From an uncultured virus (IMG/VR IMGVR_UViG_3300034178_000025) (taxonomy: Duplodnaviria; Heunggongvirae; Uroviricota; Caudoviricetes): DNA of 64,000 nucleotides. The stretch is taken from the IMG/VR virus record IMGVR_UViG_3300034178_000025. One strand, given 5' to 3'. The translations under genes were made by a program, and so were the position numbers. Shown one piece after another: positions 11,713 through 50,504 of the stretch. Under the pieces are notes generated by a model that was given only the letters and a program-made list of their open reading frames with translations, was not told where the DNA came from and searched no databases. Numbering within the stretch: position 1 is the first letter of the stretch; each line of letters begins with the position of its first letter.

Positions 11713-13338
11713 GTGCCAGTTAACCCCGTCTCTACCAACGCTGTCAACTCTGCTAATGCAGCCAAGAACAGCTGCGCTACCTGCCCCGCCATGTTGAGCA
11801 ACAGCCAGCAATCTACCCATCTGGGTCGGGCAATCGGCGGTCCAGTTTGCGGACTCAAGCTGATCCCGCTGTCCCGGCCCGGTGGTCCTGAGAAGACAAC
11901 GCTCGAGTACTTCGGCAACAAGTGTGATTCGCACGGCAAGGAGGTGGAGTTCCAGCCCGCCGCTCGGACAGCACCGATCGAACTTCAGATCGCATTCCCC
12001 GACATGAGTCTTCCGGCATCGGATGACTGGGAGGCGGAGACGGTTGCATCCTGCACGGGGTGTGCCAATTACATGCCGCCGCAGGCTACCCGCAGGGCGA
12101 CCGGATGGAGCGCGGGCTTCTGCCGCAAGAAGGGTAAGCTCCTACTGGATGACCGACTGAACACGTACGCGCGAACCTGCGAAGACAGGAAGTTCGCGCC
12201 ACGTTCGATGCGGATCTCGGACACCGATCCCACCTCGGGCAGAAGTGTGGTGATCACCATCCTGCCCGAGTACGACCTGATGTTTGGTCGACCCCAGCCG
12301 GTGAACATCCACAAGATCCACAAGGACAACATCGCTACTCCGCCGAGCCAGTACAAGTCGGACCGTCCTGTCACGGAAGCGTACAAGAAGAAGGGTATCC
12401 TCGCGTTCCGTAGGGTGCAGGATCCGAAGTCATACGGTCCTGACCTGTTGATCCCCGTGATGGATGCTGGATTCTTTGACGACGAAGATCGGAAGCGAAT
12501 CCCCCAGTCAGGCGATCCCGAGAAGCCGGAGTATTACTTCGACCACAACGGCGGGGCTTACAAGATCTTCGTGATGTGGATGAAGCTGAAGCAGACCCCC
12601 GCACTGTGGGGCGAGCCCGGCGTCGGCAAGACGGAACTGTTTCGGCATCTGGCCTGGATGATGGGCATGCCGTTCCAGCGGATCTCCATCACCGAGACCA
12701 GCGAGGTCGATGACATGATCGGGAAGATGATGTTCTCCCCCGAGAAGGGTACGTACTTCCAGTACGGACGCATCCCCCGGGGCTGGACTCGCCCGAACAT
12801 CCTGTGCCTCGATGAGCCGAACACCGGCCAGCCCGCGCTGTGGCAGAGGATTCGTCCCCTCACTGACGACAGCAAGCAGATGGTCGTCGACGAGAACAAC
12901 AGTGAGACGTTGCCGAAGCATCCGTTGTGCTACCTGGGTATGGCGATGAACCCTGCCTGGGACCCAAGAAACACGGGTGTTGCACCGTTGGCTGACGCCG
13001 ACGGTAGCCGGCTGATGCACATCAAGATGGAGCTTCCCCCTCCGGAGATCGAGAAGGAGATTCTTCTTGAGACACTGACCGCCGACCGATGGGAGGAGAG
13101 TGACGCAAAGAAGCTGATCCAAGTCCTGATGCTGATCGCCAAGGAGATTCGAACAGTTGGCGAAGAGGGTGGCCACCTGCCTTCGTGGGGAATCCGGAAC
13201 CAGAAGAAGGTGGCTCGCATCAAGAGGTACATGTCCTGGATGGACGCCTTTCGGATGGGTGTGACTGATGCCCTGGAACCGCAGGTTGCCGAGACGATCT
13301 TGGCAATCGTAAGCAGTCGCGCACCCGACGAGAACTGA
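11713..13338 (+). CDS. MoxR/CbbQ/CobS-like AAA+ ATPase with Cys-rich N-terminus
   Basis: Walker A GEPGVGKT, Walker B LCLDE, AMNP sensor-1; two CxxC..C..C clusters at the N-terminus. Confidence 0.9.
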   Translation: MPVNPVSTNAVNSANAAKNSCATCPAMLSNSQQSTHLGRAIGGPVCGLKLIPLSRPGGPEKTTLEYFGNKCDSHGKEVEFQPAARTAPIELQIAFPDMSLPASDDWEAETVASCTGCANYMPPQATRRATGWSAGFCRKKGKLLLDDRLNTYARTCEDRKFAPRSMRISDTDPTSGRSVVITILPEYDLMFGRPQPVNIHKIHKDNIATPPSQYKSDRPVTEAYKKKGILAFRRVQDPKSYGPDLLIPVMDAGFFDDEDRKRIPQSGDPEKPEYYFDHNGGAYKIFVMWMKLKQTPALWGEPGVGKTELFRHLAWMMGMPFQRISITETSEVDDMIGKMMFSPEKGTYFQYGRIPRGWTRPNILCLDEPNTGQPALWQRIRPLTDDSKQMVVDENNSETLPKHPLCYLGMAMNPAWDPRNTGVAPLADADGSRLMHIKMELPPPEIEKEILLETLTADRWEESDAKKLIQVLMLIAKEIRTVGEEGGHLPSWGIRNQKKVARIKRYMSWMDAFRMGVTDALEPQVAETILAIVSSRAPDEN

Positions 13339-13859: not shown

Positions 13860-16649
13860 ATGGGACGTGTCGTTCGATCTGCCAAAGGAACACCCCAACC
13901 ACCCAAGCTGGATCCAAAGCAGGAACTCGCTTGGAAGGCAGTCCGAAACTTTAACCGGATGCTTCCCACCCTCACCAGCTTCGCCCGTGCCCTGACCGGC
14001 AACAACAAGGTAACAGTTCGTGCCGGCAAGTCTACCGAGACAGATGGAACCATCATCTGGATGCGTCCGCCGTTGGGACTCGGCGAGACTGTCCGTCACG
14101 AGTCGTCACTGTGTGACCTACGTAACGACACCCTGACTCCACTGTGCCCAGCGTGCCGTCGCAACGACGACGTCTGGGCTGGGCTCCACCACGAGATGTC
14201 TCACATCCTACTGGGTAGCTTCCAGAAGGTGTCCGAGGACATGCGTAAGGCAATGCGTGATCTCGTTGACGATTGGCACCCAGCAGACGCATGCGATCAC
14301 GGGACTGATCTGCACAACAAGATCACTGGTTCTACCGCTTACCTGCCGATGTTCGGCATATTCTCCAAGTACCTGTGGATGATCCACCAGGCACTGGATG
14401 ACTCTCGTGTGGATTCCGGGATGCTCAACATCAAGCCTGGCCTACGCAACCAGTTTTACTCTACCAGCTATCGGGCATTCGCCGAGGGGGTAGAGCAATC
14501 GGACGGGAAGATGTCTCACTGGAGGGACGCACCCGTCAATGCGCAGGTAGTTGTCGGCATGATGCTGATCGCTTCAGGCTGTCACATCCGTGAAGGATGG
14601 CTGCGTCCGGAGGTGCTGGAGATTCTGGATGACGAGACGTTGCAGGATCTTCTGGCCGACGCGACCCACTGGGGCAACGTGGATGGCGCAGCCTGGCGTA
14701 CCATTGCCGCCTTCCGCAGGCTGAACGATATGGGCCTGTGCGTGGTAGAGAAATGCGTACCGCCAGAGCCGACGCCACCCAGCCTGAACAACGACAGCGA
14801 CAAGGAGAAATCGGATGACGGAGATCCCCAGCCCGGAGATGATCCTGTCGGAGATGAAGAAGATGCCTCCGATGGAGATGATGATCCTTCAGGTGACGAC
14901 GAAGAATCTGATTCGGACGGGGGAGATGGTTCCGAATCAGATGGATCTGGCGACGATGATAGCCAAGCATCGCCAGATTCTACGGACGCAGGCGACGAAC
15001 AGTCAGGCGACGGGTCGTTCGGAAACGACTTCGAGAACGAGGACTCGAGTAGCGACGGGTCGGATAAAGAAGGTGGGGATTCCGACTCTCAATCCGAGGA
15101 CGAGTCAGTACCTGATGACGCTGGAGATGAAGACGGCGAGGCTACTGGAGGATCATCCGACCAGCGTGAAGCTGAGCCTGATGAGAACTCTGACGGCGAT
15201 GCAGGTGAAGATCAAGCTGACGCCGTCGACTCCTCTGAGTCTGAAGACGAAGCTGAAGATGGTGAAGCTTCACCTGAAGCGGATCCCCAGGGTGATTCTG
15301 GGTCGTCAACTTCGGGAGAGTCTTCCAACCCTGATGGCAATCGCGATGCACAAGACGGCGACGGGGACGCATCAGGAGAATCTCAAGATCCGGCGGACAA
15401 GGCTGGATACGGCGGCGGAGGCGATGGATCATTCGATCCAGATGAAAGCAAGTCCGCTAGCCAGAGCACTGATGACGACGCGTCCGTTGACGCGGACGGA
15501 GAAGAAGATGTCCGAGAGGATGAACCTCTAGGCGACGAGGTCTGGTCCGAGCAATATGACGACCCCCGCCCGCAGGCTGTACGGTCCATCCCCGGAGATG
15601 AGTTCGGCGATGAGGATCTGGCCGAGGAGTTCTTCGGGAAGTTCACTGGCCACTCTGCGCACGACGAAGATGTCGACGAGCGTCTAGAAGAAGACGACCC
15701 TTACGACGAGCTGGATGATGAGATCCTGGTAGTTCGCCGCAAGGCTGTCGATAATGCTGTCATGCAGGCTGCATTCTTCGATCGATCCAGCGTTGGCGTC
15801 GGCGAGGTAGTGGAATACGAGTTCCCTACCAAGCTGTTTGGCTGGGTTGACCGTGGCTGGATCAGCAGATTCGACAACTTCCTCCCGACCGAGGCAGTGA
15901 TCGGGCGTGCACTGTTGAAGGCACGCATCGTGTTCGCCGAAAACAAGCGCAGTCGTCACGTAACCGGACTCACGTCGGGCCGGGTTAACGGCAGTTCGCT
16001 GGGCAAGCGTGCGGCACTGGGTGATGAGCGTCTGTTCAAGAAGCGGATTGCACCCGGCAAGCGTGACTACATCGTCGGCATCACGGTTGACTGCTCTGGG
16101 TCGACTCAGGGTAACCGCATCGAAAGAATCAAGCGGGCCGTGTTCGCCAAGGCTGAACTGCTGCACAGGCTGGGCGTGAAGTTCTACATCACTGCGCACA
16201 CCGGCGGCATGGAGCGCTGGTGGACCGAGGGTTACGACTACGCTCGGGACTACGGCGACGAGCTAGAGAACCTTATGATCCTGTGGATCAAGAAGCCTGA
16301 TGAGCCGTGGAACAACGCGACCCGGACCAGGTTGGCGACGCTGCCAGCTCTTGCTAACAACTTCGACGGACATACCCTCGAGTTCCATCGCAAGGTTCTA
16401 GAACGTCGTACCGAGACTGACAAGATCCTCATCTACTACACGGACGGCGCGATGCCTGCCGCGAACTACGATGAGGAGTTGGCCATCTTGACGGATGAGT
16501 TGGTCAAGTACAACCGAGCAAAGATCCATAAGCTGGCCGTCGGAATCAACACGGACAGTCCATCAAGGTATGGATTCGATACCGTGCGGGTTGACGGAGA
16601 TGAGGATCTCATCAAGGTTGTCCAGCAACTGGAACGCTACCTCGTCTAG
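13860..16649 (+). CDS. CobT-like VWA protein (HExxH N-domain, long acidic linker, MIDAS VWA)
   Basis: HHEMSH; about 300-aa D/E/S/G-rich tract; VDCSGS and YYTDG. Confidence 0.88.
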   Translation: MGRVVRSAKGTPQPPKLDPKQELAWKAVRNFNRMLPTLTSFARALTGNNKVTVRAGKSTETDGTIIWMRPPLGLGETVRHESSLCDLRNDTLTPLCPACRRNDDVWAGLHHEMSHILLGSFQKVSEDMRKAMRDLVDDWHPADACDHGTDLHNKITGSTAYLPMFGIFSKYLWMIHQALDDSRVDSGMLNIKPGLRNQFYSTSYRAFAEGVEQSDGKMSHWRDAPVNAQVVVGMMLIASGCHIREGWLRPEVLEILDDETLQDLLADATHWGNVDGAAWRTIAAFRRLNDMGLCVVEKCVPPEPTPPSLNNDSDKEKSDDGDPQPGDDPVGDEEDASDGDDDPSGDDEESDSDGGDGSESDGSGDDDSQASPDSTDAGDEQSGDGSFGNDFENEDSSSDGSDKEGGDSDSQSEDESVPDDAGDEDGEATGGSSDQREAEPDENSDGDAGEDQADAVDSSESEDEAEDGEASPEADPQGDSGSSTSGESSNPDGNRDAQDGDGDASGESQDPADKAGYGGGGDGSFDPDESKSASQSTDDDASVDADGEEDVREDEPLGDEVWSEQYDDPRPQAVRSIPGDEFGDEDLAEEFFGKFTGHSAHDEDVDERLEEDDPYDELDDEILVVRRKAVDNAVMQAAFFDRSSVGVGEVVEYEFPTKLFGWVDRGWISRFDNFLPTEAVIGRALLKARIVFAENKRSRHVTGLTSGRVNGSSLGKRAALGDERLFKKRIAPGKRDYIVGITVDCSGSTQGNRIERIKRAVFAKAELLHRLGVKFYITAHTGGMERWWTEGYDYARDYGDELENLMILWIKKPDEPWNNATRTRLATLPALANNFDGHTLEFHRKVLERRTETDKILIYYTDGAMPAANYDEELAILTDELVKYNRAKIHKLAVGINTDSPSRYGFDTVRVDGDEDLIKVVQQLERYLV

Positions 16650-26254: not shown

Positions 26255-27742
26255 GTGACTAGCCCATCTCCACCACGCAAGTCACTTGAACCGTTCCTTC
26301 GTGACAGCGTGATGTATTACAACCACCAGATACCCGCCATTCGAAGAATGGCGAAGATGGATTCGTTCCTCTTGGCTGACGACATGGGACTTGGGAAATC
26401 CCTGCAGGCGCTAACCGTGTTCTGCATCGACGTCAAGATGGGCAAGGCCGAGACGATGATCGTAGTGTGCACCACAACGCTACGAGAGAACTGGGTAGAC
26501 GAGATCGAGAAGTTCACTCGACTGCCCTATACCCTGCTGGGCGAGGTGCCGCATCCTACTCGAAAGGGTGAAACAAAAAAGCTAACCCCCGCTGCACGCG
26601 AGGCTCAGCTGATTGATTTCACCCAGCAGGCTGGGCCAAGAATTCTTATCTGTAACTACGAGCAGCTTGTCAACGTACAGCACGCGGTTACCCTGCGGGG
26701 GTTCAGATTCAGTGTTGCACTGTACGACGAGTGCCACTACATCAAGAACGCAAAGGCAAAGCGAACTGTTGCAGCACTGACCATCAGGTCAGGTAGGTCG
26801 TTCATGCTGACCGGCACGCCGATGCTTAATCAGGTGAACGAACTGTGGACGATCCTGCATCGGATTAGCCCTAGGGAGTTCCCGAAGTACTGGACGTTCG
26901 TCAACCGGTACTGCGTATTTGGTGGCTACGAGAATCGTCAGATAATCGGTGTGAAGAACGAAGCCGAATTGAAGAAGATTCTCGGACGCTTCATGATTAG
27001 GCGCCTGAAGAACGACGTGCTGGATCGAGACAAGCCTACCTATATCCAACACAAGGTTGGCCTGTCTGATTTGCAGCGCAAACTCTACGACCAGATAGAG
27101 AACGAGATGTTCCTGCAAGACGGGAACGGAGTCGAACTGGACGTAGAGAATTCGTTGACGAAGTTCCTCAGGCAGAAACAAATCTGCAACACGCCTTACT
27201 CGATCGACAGTAGCCTGCCGGACGACAGTCTCAAGCTTGACCGCGTGATCGAGGTGACTAGCGAAATTTCGGACCAGAACAACAAGTTCGTGCTATTCAC
27301 CCAATTCCGTGGTACAATGGAAGCGGTAACGAACCGGTTCCGTAAAGCTGGACTCACTAGATTCTGGCAGCTCAACGGTGATGTTCCCGCCAAGGAACGC
27401 GTGCCGATCGTAAAGTCTTGGGGAAGCGCAACCGGTGACGGAATACTGCTGTGCATGACCCAGGTTGCTGGCGTTGGACTCAACATGACAGCATCCAGTC
27501 AGTGTGGGTTCATCGACAAGCTGTTCGTACCTGGTCTCAACAGGCAGGCGGTCGACCGACTCGATCGAATCGGTCAGACCGATCCAGTGATGGTGCACGA
27601 GTTCATCACGAAGGGTACCGTGGAGGCTCGTGTAGAAGCCATCCTGTCTTCCAAGGAAGCACTGAGCGAAGACATCATCGAGGGTGGAGTCGGCATGCGC
27701 AAGCTCATCGAACTACTGAAGCAGCAGATGGAGGAAGAGTGA
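26255..27742 (+). CDS. SNF2-family helicase
   Basis: DDMGLGKS, DECH, LTGTP, GVGLN, QAVDRLDRIGQ. Confidence 0.95.
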   Translation: MTSPSPPRKSLEPFLRDSVMYYNHQIPAIRRMAKMDSFLLADDMGLGKSLQALTVFCIDVKMGKAETMIVVCTTTLRENWVDEIEKFTRLPYTLLGEVPHPTRKGETKKLTPAAREAQLIDFTQQAGPRILICNYEQLVNVQHAVTLRGFRFSVALYDECHYIKNAKAKRTVAALTIRSGRSFMLTGTPMLNQVNELWTILHRISPREFPKYWTFVNRYCVFGGYENRQIIGVKNEAELKKILGRFMIRRLKNDVLDRDKPTYIQHKVGLSDLQRKLYDQIENEMFLQDGNGVELDVENSLTKFLRQKQICNTPYSIDSSLPDDSLKLDRVIEVTSEISDQNNKFVLFTQFRGTMEAVTNRFRKAGLTRFWQLNGDVPAKERVPIVKSWGSATGDGILLCMTQVAGVGLNMTASSQCGFIDKLFVPGLNRQAVDRLDRIGQTDPVMVHEFITKGTVEARVEAILSSKEALSEDIIEGGVGMRKLIELLKQQMEEE

Positions 27743-30122: not shown

Positions 30123-30472
30123 AATACTATCTCGCCGGCCCAATGACTGGACTTCCCGACTACAACTTTCCGATGTTCGAGAAGGTGGCGAACTACCTTC
30201 GAGACATCGGCATCGATGTCGCTTCGCCTCACGAAATCGACCACGGCGAGACGCCGGAGACCAAGGGGCAGCTTCCCTATGGTGTTTACATCAGGGCTGG
30301 ACTGAAGATGCTGCTCGAGTGTGACGGCATCATCATGCTGCCCAACTGGAAAGACAGCAAGGGGGCGAAGATCGAGCTGTATGTAGCAAACGCCTGCGAC
30401 ATGCAGCTGTTCAAGTTCCACGAGGAGACCGGACACGTTGTAACTCTTTCCGACTGGGAGGTGGCGAAGTGA
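30119..30472 (+). CDS. DUF4406 / nucleoside deoxyribosyltransferase-like protein
   Basis: YLAGPMTG..YNFPMF...LECDGIIMLPNWKDSKGAKIE. Confidence 0.85.
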   Translation: MKYYLAGPMTGLPDYNFPMFEKVANYLRDIGIDVASPHEIDHGETPETKGQLPYGVYIRAGLKMLLECDGIIMLPNWKDSKGAKIELYVANACDMQLFKFHEETGHVVTLSDWEVAK

Positions 30473-31008
30473 ACAGATTCTTCGTGATCGGTCTGAACGC
30501 CGAACCCTGGGCGATCGGGCCGCTGGGACTCGGTCGCAAGGCTGGGAAGCCCTATCCGTACATCGGACCCAACCAGAAGGTGCAGGCGTACCAAGAGGCC
30601 CTGAGGGAACAACTCGAGGGGTCCGGTGTACTGGATGGCGAGGTTGAGGTTAACCTCTACATCTGGCGCAAGATCGAGACCATGTTGATCGCCGGTGGCC
30701 GGAATCGAAAGGGAAAGTCGGCCGACGCAACCAACATACAGAAGGCAACTGAGGACGCCCTACAGGGCGTGCTCATTACGAACGACCGCCTCGTTCGGCG
30801 TATCTCTACGGAGGTAATGCAGCAGGACGAGAACACCGAACCGTGCATCGTCATCCAAGTGAGGCCATATGTCGGGTCAACTCCGGAACTCCCGGATCAC
30901 ATCTGGGATCAAGTGGATTCAGTCGCTGGTCGTCCTACGCCGGATACACTCTTTGTTCCGGTGGCTGGTGGATCTACTGAAGAGGTAGATTCGGCGGGCG
31001 TGTTCTAG
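30469..31008 (+). CDS. RusA-like Holliday junction resolvase
   Basis: DATNIQKATEDALQGVLITND. Confidence 0.8.
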   Translation: MNRFFVIGLNAEPWAIGPLGLGRKAGKPYPYIGPNQKVQAYQEALREQLEGSGVLDGEVEVNLYIWRKIETMLIAGGRNRKGKSADATNIQKATEDALQGVLITNDRLVRRISTEVMQQDENTEPCIVIQVRPYVGSTPELPDHIWDQVDSVAGRPTPDTLFVPVAGGSTEEVDSAGVF

Positions 31009-31716
31009 ATGAAGGTTGTCCAGGACATCTGGCACGGAGACAGTCGAGTCCTGTGCCAGAGGCTGAAGCCCAACAGTGTGGGTTGCGTGATCACCGACCC
31101 ACCCTTTGGAGTAGACAATCAGTCTCACTCTTCCGTCACGGTCGAAGGCAAGATGAATGCCCGGAAGATTGCAAACGACGAATCTCCTGAGCAAGCTATC
31201 TCTGTCTTTAACGAGGTGATGGATGTCCTGCTGCCCAAGACAAAGGAACATGCTGACCTATACATCTTCACAGCTCATCAGGTTCTGAATGAATGGCTTG
31301 ACGTCGCCGATAGTTTGTCTAGACACGGGTACACCCGACGGGGTATCCTGGTGTGGGAGAAGACTGGACCGGGGATGGGCGACACGGACTCATGGGGGAT
31401 GTCCCATGAATTCTGCATCTTCCTCAAGAAGGGCAGACGCCTAAGGAGTGACACTCGACGATCGGGTGTTATCCACATTCCACAGGTTCGACCGGATAAG
31501 CTCATCCACCCCCACGAGAAGCCACTTGCTCTTATCGAGTTGCTACTCAAACACAGCACAAGTCCTGGTGATCTTGCGGTTGATCCTTTCGGTGGCAGTG
31601 GGACGCTGGCCCGCGCCTGCAAGAACATCGGACGGTCCGGACTCTCCATGGAGTACGACAAGCTAAATTTCGATAGAGCATACGAGGCGCTGCACAGTGC
31701 CGATGGACTATTCTAA
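31009..31716 (+). CDS. amino (N6-A/N4-C) DNA methyltransferase, beta class
   Basis: TDPPF, HPHEKP, DPFGGSGT. Confidence 0.92.
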   Translation: MKVVQDIWHGDSRVLCQRLKPNSVGCVITDPPFGVDNQSHSSVTVEGKMNARKIANDESPEQAISVFNEVMDVLLPKTKEHADLYIFTAHQVLNEWLDVADSLSRHGYTRRGILVWEKTGPGMGDTDSWGMSHEFCIFLKKGRRLRSDTRRSGVIHIPQVRPDKLIHPHEKPLALIELLLKHSTSPGDLAVDPFGGSGTLARACKNIGRSGLSMEYDKLNFDRAYEALHSADGLF

Positions 31717-31731
31717 CCAAGGAGAGATGCA

Positions 31732-32082
31732 ATGCAGTTGATACGCCCAGTTATCTGGCTCAGTCGCAATGCTGGCCAGGACCCGGAAAGTCCTGTGAAG
31801 GATTTCCGCCCAGCCAACACGGCACCTGTCGAATCCACTGCCGACATCGCGGTGGCAATCGAGGCCGTCGAAGTGTCTGTGACGGTGGAGGAGGAGCCTG
31901 ACCCAAAAGGCTCATCTGCACAGGGATCTGCGTTGACCTCCAGCGACGACAAGAAAGAGATGGAGTCGCAAACCCCCTTGTTGCCGGTGTCCGAGGATCT
32001 CCCTGTGGATGCGGCGAAGGCGAAGTTGTTGCATCCGTCTTCAGTGAAGACTGGGAAGCCCGGGCAGCCTGCGGCGGCGTAG
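31732..32082 (+). CDS. low-complexity protein; possible N-terminal part of a frameshift fusion with WhiB
   Basis: AAGGAG RBS 7 nt before the ATG; contains C-CCA-AAA at 31902-31908. Confidence 0.6.
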   Translation: MQLIRPVIWLSRNAGQDPESPVKDFRPANTAPVESTADIAVAIEAVEVSVTVEEEPDPKGSSAQGSALTSSDDKKEMESQTPLLPVSEDLPVDAAKAKLLHPSSVKTGKPGQPAAA

Positions 32083-32258
32083 CACTTATCCGAACGGCCG
32101 CTGGGAAGAATGATATATTCTTTCCTCCGGCCGGGGAGGATGTAGAGGCGGTTGTTGACTACTGCCTCAAGTGTACGGTTCGCGCCGAGTGCGACGACAA
32201 GGCAAACAGATTTAAAGTCGAGTTCGGAATCTGGGGCGGGACAAGGAGGAAGAAGTAG
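31902..32258 (+). CDS. WhiB-family Fe-S transcription factor domain (no in-frame ATG/GTG/TTG)
   Basis: Frame absent from the ORF track reads DWEARAAC...DIFFP...YCLKCTVRAEC...FGIWGG; the frame opens after TGA 31899-31901. Confidence 0.85.
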   Translation, partial: PKRLICTGICVDLQRRQERDGVANPLVAGVRGSPCGCGEGEVVASVFSEDWEARAACGGVALIRTAAGKNDIFFPPAGEDVEAVVDYCLKCTVRAECDDKANRFKVEFGIWGGTRRKK

Positions 32259-33415
32259 TGGACCCATATTCATTCAGTGCAACGTCACTGCAGGTGGCCA
32301 GCCTGTGTCTCGCTCGCTATAAAGCTGAGTACATCGATCGAGGTGCAAACGTCCAGGGGACTGCAGCCAACGTTGGCATTGTCTGTCATGGAACGTTTGA
32401 AGACTTTCTTCGCGCGGTGTTCATCCGGAAGGATGCGCCGTGGGACGAAGAGGTGTTCTGGAATATCTTTCACCAGCACTCGGACGCTGTGCTGGGGCCG
32501 GACCGCACCTCCGAGCTTTACAAGGACGCATACGACCTGTGCTTCAAATGGTTCCATACCAAGGATCGATACGAAGATCTCTCGTCGATTGAGATCCTGT
32601 CATTGGAATCCAAGAACAGCTTTCCGATCAAGACCAGCATCGGCGTCAAGCCTGTCAACTACATCATGGACAGGCTTGACCGGATCGGTCCGAAGGAGTA
32701 CAGAGTAGTCGACTACAAGTCGAATCGAATCGGACTGACCGCGGCGCAGCTTCGCAAGAAGCTTCAAGCTCGACTGTACGCTTTGATGGTGCAGATCAAG
32801 TACAAGGATGCCGAACGGATCTGGGTGCAGTTCGAGTTCCTCCGCCACGGACAGGTCGAGGTGCTGTTCACTCGTGACGACAACATCACGATGTACCGCG
32901 AGCTACAGCGTCGCACCGAGGGGATTGTTCAGACTCCGGACAACAAGGTTCCCGAGACCCTCAACGAGGAGTGCGGGTACTGCGTCCGGAAGGCTAGCTG
33001 CAAGAAGATGACTAGCCACATCCAGGTCGGCGGAATCCTCAGTAAGACTCCCGACGAACTGGCCGAGATTCACTACGAGATCGCCAACCAGGCGAAGGCA
33101 CAGAAGCTTCTGTTGGATCAGGTTGAAGACCTGCTCCTGCAGTACGCGATCCAAGAGGAGCTCACCGAGTTCGACACGCCGTTCGGCGAAGTCAAGGTTG
33201 TCCTGCCGATGCGTCGGTCAGTGAACAACGAGATGGCTGCAGCCGTCTTGGGTCCGTCGGGATTGTTGCAGGATTATCAGCACTTCTCGGTGACCGACCT
33301 GGACAGGATCATCAAGAACAAGTTGCTACCTCAGGGTCAGCTTGATCTTCTGAAACTGTGCATCGTCAAAAAAGCCGGTGACCCTACCGTGAAGGTGGAC
33401 CACAGTGGAAAGTGA
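32258..33415 (+). CDS. Cas4/RecB-like PD-(D/E)xK exonuclease
   Basis: MDRLD, VVDYKS, QARLYA, CGYCVRKASC plus an N-terminal Cys. Confidence 0.88.
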   Translation: MDPYSFSATSLQVASLCLARYKAEYIDRGANVQGTAANVGIVCHGTFEDFLRAVFIRKDAPWDEEVFWNIFHQHSDAVLGPDRTSELYKDAYDLCFKWFHTKDRYEDLSSIEILSLESKNSFPIKTSIGVKPVNYIMDRLDRIGPKEYRVVDYKSNRIGLTAAQLRKKLQARLYALMVQIKYKDAERIWVQFEFLRHGQVEVLFTRDDNITMYRELQRRTEGIVQTPDNKVPETLNEECGYCVRKASCKKMTSHIQVGGILSKTPDELAEIHYEIANQAKAQKLLLDQVEDLLLQYAIQEELTEFDTPFGEVKVVLPMRRSVNNEMAAAVLGPSGLLQDYQHFSVTDLDRIIKNKLLPQGQLDLLKLCIVKKAGDPTVKVDHSGK

Positions 33416-33608
33416 ACAGCACACTCAGAAGTGTCCCGCTGTATGCACGTGTCGTGGTGCGGGCAACGACACCCAGGAGCAACAGCAACCCTCGGATGAC
33501 CACGGTAGACCGGTCAGCGACGGCCCGGCACAGACGCATGCCAACGCGGACACGACGCACACGGCGACCCCGAAGGCCAGACTCACCCACGAGTTCTAGC
33601 CCACAAGC

Positions 33609-33650
33609 GAACAGGCACCATACCTCATCGGAGAGGTATGGTGCCTGTTC
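33609..33650. terminator. bidirectional terminator between the convergent arms
   Basis: Perfect 18-bp stem GAACAGGCACCATACCTC / GAGGTATGGTGCCTGTTC. Confidence 0.85.
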
Positions 33651-49108: not shown

Positions 49109-49570
49109 CTACTGCCCTCCATGCTTTATTAGGTACATAACTGCAGATAGGAGGATTTCTGGATCTTCCTTTGCCTTGCCAATGATTGTGTTGCAAAGCA
49201 TGCAAAGTAGACCACGAACTTTTTTCGTATTGTGATCATGATCTACCTGCAAAGTCGATAGGGCAAGTGGGCCGGATGTAAAAGTCTTACAGATAGCACA
49301 TTTGCCATCTTGTTCTTTAAGCATCCGATCAAAGTCGTCTGGCGTCAATCCATACTTTCGGATACGCTGATATGCAGCCTGTGCGGCTACATATTCTGGA
49401 TCGTTTTCTCTCTTGCTGCGCTGCCAGATTAGGTTAGCGGCAAGGCAACATTTCTTGCATTTTGTCTTGAGGCTCGGATAGAATTCACAGCCCCACTTCA
49501 TGCAGTCACAATGCTTACAGAGTTTTACTTCGCAGCCAGACTGAACATGGTCGTGCTCAACTTCAGACAC
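49109..49570 (-). CDS. endonuclease VII-like HNH endonuclease (free-standing homing-type)
   Basis: KYGLT...QDGKCAIC...VDHDH...VRGLLC..CN; visibly AT-richer than flanks. Confidence 0.9.
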   Translation of the reverse strand: MSEVEHDHVQSGCEVKLCKHCDCMKWGCEFYPSLKTKCKKCCLAANLIWQRSKRENDPEYVAAQAAYQRIRKYGLTPDDFDRMLKEQDGKCAICKTFTSGPLALSTLQVDHDHNTKKVRGLLCMLCNTIIGKAKEDPEILLSAVMYLIKHGGQ

Positions 49571-49668: not shown

Positions 49669-49950
49669 TTACCGTTTACCTCGACGAGATGATGCTCTCT
49701 TGTTCTTGGTGTCTTGATTCTTTCGGTTCCGCTCTTCCTCTTCGTTTCGACGAAATTCTTCTTCGTCTAGCTTTCGGAAGATGTATTCGAACTTGTCAAG
49801 CAGATCCGGGTCTTGGTCGTACAGTCCACCATCAACCGGTAGATGACTCCACTTCATATTCCTACAAAGTGAAAATAATCTTATTGCCGGATGCGGCCCG
49901 ATGGTTGACTCGCCCTTTACCCACCGATCTACCTGGAGACGAAATTTCCC
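49669..49950 (-). CDS. tail assembly chaperone, -1 frameshift extension (GT-like)
   Basis: G-GGA-AAT at 49950-49944; the -1 frame is open into LPVDGGLYDQ and stops at 49669. Confidence 0.85.
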   Translation of the reverse strand, partial: GKFRLQVDRWVKGESTIGPHPAIRLFSLCRNMKWSHLPVDGGLYDQDPDLLDKFEYIFRKLDEEEFRRNEEEERNRKNQDTKNKRASSRRGKR

Positions 49951-50504
49951 TCTTCGGCTTCACGCTTCTCTGCCACGGCGCGGAGTTCCTGGAGGTCGGC
50001 GATCTCCTTGTCGATCTGCTCGACGGACATCTCGTTGAGCAGCCATGGGTTCGCCTTGCGGATGGCCTTCTCGAGCTGCGCCAGCACGGCCGGGTTTGCC
50101 CGATCGATCCACTGAGCCAGCGATCCACCAGGCGTCTTGCCGGGATTGAAGGGGATCAGCTGCGGCTGGCCGTTGGTGAACATCACCATGTGCCAGTTGC
50201 AGATGGAGTGCAACAGCAACTCCTTGCGATCTGCCGACTGGTCGAACGGGATACGTGCCTCGCCGGACTTCTGGTTGAGGTGCACGTCCGACCGGGTCGC
50301 CTTGAGGTACTTCGCCCGATCGCCCTCGGTGAGTTTCTTGAACTCGATCCACTGGCGGCCGTCCGGGAAGGTCCACTTCTCGACCTCGTCGAACGAGTAG
50401 TAGTTCTCGTATCCGTTGAACGGATCGATGTTCTCGTGAGGGACGGCGACATCACTCGGCGTGACGTAGCTGTCTCCGCCGCCTGCGGTGGGATAAGGTT
50501 GCAT
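49929..50504 (-). CDS. tail assembly chaperone (G-like)
   Basis: Between tail tube and tape measure; ends EEGNFVSR over the slippery site. Confidence 0.85.
   Translation of the reverse strand: MQPYPTAGGGDSYVTPSDVAVPHENIDPFNGYENYYSFDEVEKWTFPDGRQWIEFKKLTEGDRAKYLKATRSDVHLNQKSGEARIPFDQSADRKELLLHSICNWHMVMFTNGQPQLIPFNPGKTPGGSLAQWIDRANPAVLAQLEKAIRKANPWLLNEMSVEQIDKEIADLQELRAVAEKREAEEGNFVSR

Follow-up and report, generated by a model that had tools for sequence, protein, structure and literature searches.

The window analysed here, a stretch of 64,000 nucleotides (nt) from the uncultured virus IMGVR_UViG_3300034178_000025 (IMG/VR; Caudoviricetes), encodes on its plus strand, within positions 31732-32258, a domain of the WhiB (Wbl) family in a reading frame that has no start codon, which raises the question of how this domain could be translated. 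It was found that the start-less frame and the open reading frame (ORF) overlapping it from upstream, ORF1, have a layout that is retained in relatives, and we consider it highly probable that both belong to one recoded gene governed by a real, conserved and so far unannotated programmed −1 frameshift.

Two overlapping frames and an in-phase heptamer

ORF1 (31732-32082, plus strand, frame 0) extends from the ATG at 31732, 5 nt before which the ribosome-binding site AGGAGAG (31720-31726) is located, to the TAG at 32080-32082, yielding a product of 116 amino acids (aa) if read without a shift. The −1 frame (31902-32258, plus strand) comprises 118 codons plus a TAG (32256-32258), contains zero ATG, GTG or TTG codons and is closed directly upstream by a TGA at 31899-31901. 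The opening of this frame coincides exactly with the heptamer C CCA AAA (31902-31908), which is of the slippery type X XXY YYZ and stands in the codon phase of ORF1. The first 59 codons of ORF1, up to AAA at 31906-31908, encode the N-terminus common to both predicted products, consisting of a P-V-x-[FW]...DFRP motif and an acidic linker, while a Ser-, Pro- and Glu-rich tail of ORF1 follows 3′ of the slip site. After a slip, reading would continue from AGG at 31908, for a predicted product of 59 + 116 = 175 residues. Upstream of the heptamer, the plus-strand Shine-Dalgarno (SD)-like stretch GGAGGAGGAG (31887-31896), the first GGAGG of which ends 10 nt 5′ of the heptamer, is a candidate stimulator. 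These data conform with a preliminary description of the locus, which had claimed a complete WhiB signature in a frame without a start codon, the in-phase heptamer at the opening of that frame (recovered here letter for letter), the SD-like stretch with GGAGG 10 nt upstream of it and a fusion protein of ~175 aa.

Across 28 further long ORFs of the window (13,490 codons), heptamers of the X XXY YYZ type stand in phase 19 times (0.14% per codon), 0 of the 19 being CCCAAAA. Given this background, a heptamer at the very first codon of a start-less frame is unlikely on its own, and, as judged from the aligned loci described below, conservation in relatives takes its placement far beyond chance.

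The integrity of the stretch, which the preliminary description had proposed to verify in sequencing reads, was inspected on assembled DNA contigs rather than raw reads. Contigs of runs X1 and X2, which possibly represent the source sample, spanned positions 31650-32350 with 0 gaps, and a contig of X3, from a third study, covered 31650-32112 with 0 gaps and one substitution (31710 A>G); no indel was thus present at the level of contigs. Run X4 contained parts of the stretch together with a piece of a diverged relative, leaving 31890-32225 uncovered.

The WhiB domain proper (32052-32249, plus strand) was recognised by the Pfam family Whib (PF02467) over residues 51-116 of the −1 frame with an E-value of 1.9e-10 (41.5 bits versus a cut-off of 23.6), and the frame also matched phrog_472; an NCBIfam match was not obtained for the −1-frame protein. 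The domain contains the cysteines C57, C88, C91 and C97, which are invariant in 27 sequences in the arrangement C...C-x2-C-x5-C, a GIWGG turn at residues 109-113 and a basic tail TRRKK. Four cluster cysteines and a G-[IV]-W-G-G turn define the Wbl motif. In a sequence search of the PDB, the best match was 8dy7_H, a Streptomyces WhiB (6.9e-16), and WhiB1, WhiB3, WhiB4 and WhiB7 were also found, all from profile position 52 on.

An AlphaFold model of the −1 frame, based on the alignment of 27 sequences, had a mean predicted local distance difference test (pLDDT) value of 72.7, with block values of 84/59/83/91/93/88/87 over residues 51-118 and the dip to 59 at residues 61-70. When the model was compared with the PDB by Foldseek, the best 14 matches were all Wbl chains, with sigma-A region 4 or RNA polymerase named in the descriptions of 13 of the entries. 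Target-normalised template modelling scores were 0.54-0.68 for the first 13 matches, and the best E-value was 1.3e-3, so that none reaches 0.001. We conclude that this part of the −1 frame has the WhiB fold; by analogy with its family, it would bind a [4Fe-4S] cluster and region 4 of sigma-A.

The WhiB domain is preceded in the −1 frame by a further module with four cysteines (31917-32021, plus strand), arranged as C-x3-C (C6, C10) and C-x-C-G-E-G (C35, C37, G40). This part was poorly modelled (pLDDT 49-70), and no relative of it was detected by the PDB sequence search or in the ESM Atlas with residues 1-52 of the −1 frame. The four extra cysteines probably form a pair of metal-binding knuckles. 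For the unshifted 116-aa protein of ORF1, the ESM Atlas model was disordered (pLDDT 0.43); searches yielded no Pfam or NCBIfam family, no usable ESM Atlas match and, in PHROGs, only a weak family of unknown function.

Conservation of the candidate slip site in relatives

Relatives were collected by a tblastn search of 50,697 phage records with the −1 frame as query, the heptamer not being used in the selection. Matches were obtained in 193 records, of which 104 cover at least 80% of the query including the 50 residues before the WhiB domain. These long matches belong to Gordonia, Tsukamurella and Rhodococcus phages of ~72-82 kb; Mycobacterium phages matched in the WhiB domain part only. All of the 12 Gordonia, Rhodococcus and Tsukamurella phage loci that were examined have the upstream ORF in frame 0, the WhiB frame in −1 and a homologous in-phase X XXY YYZ heptamer, which reads CCCAAAA in six (Orchid, RobinSparkles, ReqiDocB7, Camerico, GMA3 and Reynauld) and CCCTTTA in the other six (Damp, GTE7, Chelms, TIN4, Butterball and Monty).

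When peptide patterns internal to WhiB were used for a locus search, 17 viral contigs were obtained, consisting of eight full-length loci, eight ordinary WhiB genes and one locus cut by the contig end (L098). CCCTTTA was present in 8/8 of the full-length loci, most of which, judging from genome length, are records of the same clade-2 phages or of close relatives. Conservation of the heptamer together with the two-frame layout, which had been named in advance as a check on the frameshift, was thus found throughout the phage loci and viral contigs that test it. The slippery pattern is retained despite different letters and a different encoded residue (Lys versus Leu/Phe), a combination that selection on a "PK" dipeptide at the protein level would not produce. 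As controls, the ordinary phage WhiB genes of Xula, Kromp and the viral contigs L090-L097 (six of these eight being one identical sequence) were found to have their own starts and to be devoid of the four-cysteine module.

Scans with the heptamer pattern extended the sample. The layout was present in 9/9 viral contigs and, in metagenomes, a long −1 frame followed the heptamer in 27/49 matches, comprising 26 family members, one of which (L042) is identical to the window here, and a chance match in a membrane protein (L031). The other 22 matches have short frames and either are due to chance, which the information content of the pattern leads one to expect, or result from a cut by the contig end, as in L056. 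In total, 33 distinct CCCAAAA sites were available. When one genome per prokaryotic species was scanned with the same pattern, nine matches but no family member were obtained, and no prophage copy was found this way; the nine are regarded as chance matches because all are non-actinobacterial with short −1 frames. A tblastn search of the phage records with ORF1 gave no match, nor did a word-based protein search with the −1 frame or a single-protein locus search in the viral contigs.

Alignment of the loci revealed distinct protein motifs on either side of the heptamer. In frame 0, a motif x-P-[VI]-x-F, ~7-12 further residues, DFRP and a variable acidic linker are kept 5′ of the site in both clades (17 aligned loci). 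In the −1 frame 3′ of the site, P-K-[RS]-[LF]-[IV]-C-[TS]-G-x-C is followed by a variable spacer, C-x-C-G-E-G and the WhiB domain, with P1, K2, C6, G8, C10, C35, C37, G40, W51, C57, C88, C91, V93, C97 and G109 being invariant in 27 aligned proteins. Identity of the 26 aligned relatives to the −1-frame protein of the window amounts to 32-42%, and the copy in the window is a distant new family member.

Pairwise differences by codon position were 0.188/0.195/0.457 in frame 0 over the 30 codons before the site in a Monty-like clade, and 0.383/0.277/0.497 in the −1 frame over the 50 codons after the site in a GMA3-like group, the third codon position being the most variable in both cases. On the evidence of these alignments, conservation changes its coding frame at the heptamer.

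Start codons able to yield the conserved part are lacking from the −1 frame in relatives as well. In the window and the nine viral contigs, the −1 frame is devoid of ATG, GTG and TTG from the heptamer to +147 nt (0/10 loci), and a −1-frame stop is present 0-30 nt 5′ of the heptamer in 8/10. In clade 2, the first −1-frame start falls within the WhiB domain, at C-x2-C, after the first cluster cysteine. An unsplit form was sought with a profile of 10 family proteins, which was run over 1.84 billion representative proteins and returned 26,585 WhiB-domain proteins. None of the best 150 of these matches covers profile positions 1-20 in a single ORF; since a full-length match would have outscored all of them, no unsplit form is among them, and the top match (P0003) corresponds to the Orchid-type call with an internal start. 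A stand-alone whiB gene with its own start, which would have spoken for a conventional gene, was absent from the family members examined.

The public annotations of the 12 relatives reflect the absence of a start, in that the WhiB region is empty, reduced to a stub of 33 residues or covered by an internally started fragment. Orchid, Camerico, GTE7 and TIN4 have no annotated gene over the region, and in Chelms a Cas4 call is stretched over part of it. The 33-residue stub is annotated in Damp, Butterball and Monty, and internally started fragments are annotated in ReqiDocB7, GMA3, RobinSparkles and Reynauld. The upstream ORF is labelled 'endonuclease' in RefSeq copies of relatives.

Slippage model, alternatives and known systems

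The frameshift interpretation of the preliminary description is supported by the conserved site and layout in relatives, by the absence of a stand-alone gene and by contigs without an indel. In the proposed mechanism, ribosomes would initiate at ATG 31732 and read 59 codons, comprising the N-terminal motif and the acidic linker. At C CCA AAA, a fraction would slip back by one base, with tRNA-Pro re-pairing from CCA to CCC and tRNA-Lys from AAA to AAA. The slip would probably be aided by pairing of the 3′ end of 16S rRNA with GGAGGAGGAG, 6-10 nt upstream, and perhaps also by the rare Lys codon AAA. Shifted ribosomes would yield the 175-aa protein, in which the N-terminal motif is joined to the four extra cysteines and the WhiB [4Fe-4S] domain, the latter predicted to bind region 4 of the main sigma factor of the host, and unshifted ribosomes would yield the probably disordered 116-aa protein with the same N-terminus. 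The frequency of slipping would therefore set how much WhiB regulator is made and in what proportion to the short product.

For the upstream element, duplex energies with an assumed sequence of the 16S 3′ end were calculated. GGAGGAGGAG gave a best value of −11.7 kcal/mol, 6 nt before the heptamer, more than any other SD-like stretch examined; among random 22-nt windows, 1% match or beat this energy. Over the 33 sites, the mean energy was −8.2 kcal/mol versus −2.9 kcal/mol in a control stretch, and a stretch of −8 kcal/mol or below was present in 18/33 sites versus 0/33 in the control. In the 11 codons before the site, Glu outnumbers Asp by 80 to 46 over the 33 sites, whereas Asp is more frequent in the genes of the phage of the window overall (883 Asp versus 679 Glu codons); this fits, without proving it, selection for letters of the GAG/GGAGG type.

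Several observations weigh against a programmed frameshift or against parts of the proposed mechanism. The scans of metagenomes and viral contigs with the heptamer pattern required the heptamer and thus test the layout only, leaving its conservation to be judged on the 12 phage loci and the eight full-length viral contigs. In the Monty-like clade, the codon-position signal is weak after the site (0.268/0.239/0.317). In three metagenome loci (L038, L040 and L057, of which the latter two are alike), −1-frame starts are present ~160-220 nt upstream of the heptamer; these starts overlap the frame-0 N-terminus, which carries the conserved motif, and may be due to chance or constitute a second way into the −1 frame. 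At 15/33 sites, the SD-like stretch does not attain −8 kcal/mol, its spacing varies from 3 to at least 13 nt, and it may in part be a by-product of Glu codons in the acidic linker. The stimulator claimed in the preliminary description needs qualification: the stretch is strong in the window but only enriched, at variable spacing, in relatives. Finally, a conserved hairpin or pseudoknot was not found downstream of the site, where z-scores of the first 90 nt ranged from −2.6 to +1.7 in 16 loci (+0.62 in the window) and RNAalifold found 0 compensatory pairs (−0.35 kcal/mol); for the 121-nt stretch centred on the site of the window, the z-score was −0.30. Rfam had no match within 31400-32500 at E-values up to 1.

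Among the alternatives, we give little credence to separate initiation of the four-cysteine and WhiB protein at a non-standard codon after 31902, such as ATC 31914 or 31926, with GGAGGAGGAG as ribosome-binding site and ORF1 as a separate gene. The strong SD-like stretch 6 nt before 31902 would suit such a start, but stretches of this kind are weak or absent in 15/33 sites, and the conserved −1-frame peptide P-K-R-L begins upstream of both ATC codons. The corresponding codons in relatives are GTT, GTC, ATA and ATC, revealing no conserved start, so that initiation at these positions, against which the earlier interpretation had to be held, was judged unlikely. Moreover, the in-phase X XXY YYZ pattern, conserved as either CCCAAAA or CCCTTTA, plays no part in initiation, and in 8/10 loci the −1 frame is interrupted by a stop 0-30 nt 5′ of the heptamer.

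Slippage of RNA polymerase on the A or T run of the heptamer, giving transcripts with one extra base that are read normally, would yield the same fusion protein and is not separable from ribosomal slippage by sequence data alone; it appears to us very improbable nonetheless. The runs consist of only four A or three T, and known transcriptional slippage sites use longer runs. The two-triplet pattern in a fixed codon phase, seen in 12/12 phage loci picked without the heptamer, matters to tRNAs and not to a polymerase. The DNA contigs show no length variation, although DNA would not reveal slippage in transcripts. That the WhiB frame is a decaying remnant or an assembly error from which no WhiB protein is made, as the missing start codon and the metagenome assembly could imply, is hardly tenable and looks already refuted by conservation, given the same layout in cultured, finished phage genomes and dozens of divergent contigs (32-42% identity), eight invariant cysteines in a −1 frame that is intact throughout the alignment, and the gap-free agreement of contigs of three runs from three studies.

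Returning to the programmed frameshift, the fate of frame 0 beyond the site bears on the role of the short product. In all family loci seen, frame 0 continues past the site for at least 39 codons without a stop (120-321 nt), the corresponding stretch of the window being 31909-32082. The equally shifted frame of ordinary genes is open that long at 20% of window positions and at 1.5-46% in the loci of six relatives. The long-open tail suggests that the short product is selected too. A tentative extension, which we hold to be possible though rather unlikely, is a two-output switch between a Ser/Pro/Glu-rich disordered protein and an eight-cysteine WhiB regulator with possibly two metal centres, both endowed with the same N-terminal docking motif; in such a switch, the short product could act as competitor or partner of the long one.

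The codons at the A-site are rare in the phage of the window, AAA accounting for 62/621 Lys codons and TTA, with 6/1,079, being the rarest Leu codon. Rarity of the A-site codon (AAA here and TTA in clade 2, in whose phages its rarity is assumed) would, in the same tentative reading, mean that the product ratio could follow the translational state of the host. A rare slip codon as a general rule was set aside, since relatives such as Orchid have only 46% G+C in the region.

The long product would probably redirect host transcription via sigma-A, a role proposed by analogy with WhiBTM4 of mycobacteriophage TM4, which is reported to displace host WhiB2 from the whiB2 promoter and to block septation (Bush 2018, PMC6282962). 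With WhiBTM4, Streptomyces WhiB and mycobacterial WhiB1, WhiB3, WhiB4 and WhiB7, the protein shares the four cluster cysteines, the G-[IV]-W-G-G turn and the basic tail. In contrast to the ordinary phage WhiB proteins of Xula, Kromp and L090-L097, it lacks a start of its own, and its domain is preceded by four further invariant cysteines and an N-terminal motif.

As to the mechanism, a −1 frameshift in the G/GT genes of tail assembly chaperones of lambda-like dsDNA phages was reportedly described by Levin in 1993 and by Xu, Hendrix and Duda in 2004. The phage G/GT frameshift is reviewed by Atkins et al. 2016 (PMC5009743), the accessible portion of which does not mention WhiB. The WhiB locus resembles G/GT in the predicted −1 slip at X XXY YYZ in a small phage gene, in two products with one N-terminus and in the conservation of the site across divergent phages despite sequence differences. 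A G/GT-type candidate is also present in the window itself (G GGA AAT T at 49950, minus strand). In contrast to G/GT, the WhiB gene encodes a non-structural regulator in the early/replication arm, its −1 part holds a whole functional domain (four cysteines plus WhiB) that is not otherwise makeable, and frame 0 runs on for at least 39 codons past the site.

A spacing rule for SD and heptamer is known from Escherichia coli dnaX, and the SD-like stretch of the WhiB locus lies likewise a few to ~10 nt before the heptamer; in both, the A-site codon encodes Lys. For the τ/γ −1 frameshift of dnaX, an upstream internal SD is given as stimulator (PMC5600365). The dnaX site adds a downstream hairpin, whereas none is conserved in the WhiB family, in which the SD-like stretch is not universal either, and the shifted dnaX product is the shorter one, while that of the WhiB locus is longer and carries the domain. 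The only other non-structural case encountered in actinophages is that of the gp50/gp51 primase halves of phage Bxb1, for which expression as a single protein via programmed frameshift or bypassing has been proposed (PMC12646305). For Bxb1, neither a slippery heptamer nor a mechanism is defined, and the protein family is another.

The literature search retrieved no report linking WhiB with frameshifting, subscription journals being outside the search, and papers containing both words were unrelated. The statement of the preliminary description that CCCAAAA is a described phage slippery sequence was not confirmed in the literature searched. The known components are thus a G/GT-type frameshift mechanism with a dnaX-like upstream helper and an ordinary Wbl domain; new is their combination in a transcription regulator that would be produced solely in trans-frame form, together with an extra invariant four-cysteine module.

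For tail chaperones and some capsid proteins of tailed phages, programmed frameshifts are textbook knowledge, which does not hold for transcription regulators. In a large group of actinobacterial phages, with 104 public records matching full length, an entire regulator domain would depend on recoding. The correct gene model alters what gets cloned in overexpression screens of these phages. With their four extra invariant cysteines and common N-terminal motif, the family members constitute a WhiB subfamily, and they offer a natural actinobacterial frameshift site with two interchangeable heptamers, which would be useful for mechanistic work.

Gene neighbourhood and other features of the window

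The window represents all or much of the genome of a tailed phage, and its DNA is present in sediment metagenome runs; no RNA run was among those listed as containing the WhiB stretch. Megablast of positions 31000-33500 against the phage records gave zero matches. The plus-strand block spans ~1 to 33.4 kb and includes genes for an SNF2 helicase, an AAA_5 ATPase, a CobT-like VWA protein, RusA and a DNA methylase; the minus-strand block spans ~34 to 64 kb and includes those for a portal of the Mu type, a major capsid protein of the E type, a tail tube protein and a tape measure protein of 1671 aa. The WhiB locus is located close to the end of the plus-strand block, preceded by the genes for RusA (30469-31008, plus strand) and the DNA methylase (31009-31716, plus strand) and followed by a gene for a PD-(D/E)XK (Cas4-like) nuclease with a GTG start (32258-33415, plus strand). 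The TAG stop of the −1 frame and the GTG of the nuclease gene have a G in common within TAGTG (32256..32260, plus strand), which is a usual coupling arrangement of the −1 frame with the next gene. Between the converging gene blocks, an 18-bp perfect hairpin followed by T-rich sequence (33609-33650) is likely a two-way terminator.

Further in-phase heptamers in the plus-strand block are A AAA AAG at 26575-26581 inside the SNF2 helicase gene and G GGA AAG at 30711-30717 inside the RusA gene, both of which may be due to chance. In the early arm, the gene for the AAA_5 (MoxR-like) ATPase (11713-13338) is separated by ~520 nt from that for a 929-aa protein with a CobT-type VWA domain (13860-16649).

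The tail-chaperone frameshift candidate (49669-50504, minus strand) is located between the tail tube and tape measure genes. Its G-like ORF (50504 to 49929, minus strand) stops just past an in-phase G GGA AAT (49950) and A AAT TTC (49947), and the −1 ORF beside it is open from 49959 to 49669. Between the chaperone and tape measure genes, a Cys-rich ORF of 153 aa (49109-49570, minus strand) appears HNH-like by eye, with DHDH... and several C-x2-C motifs.

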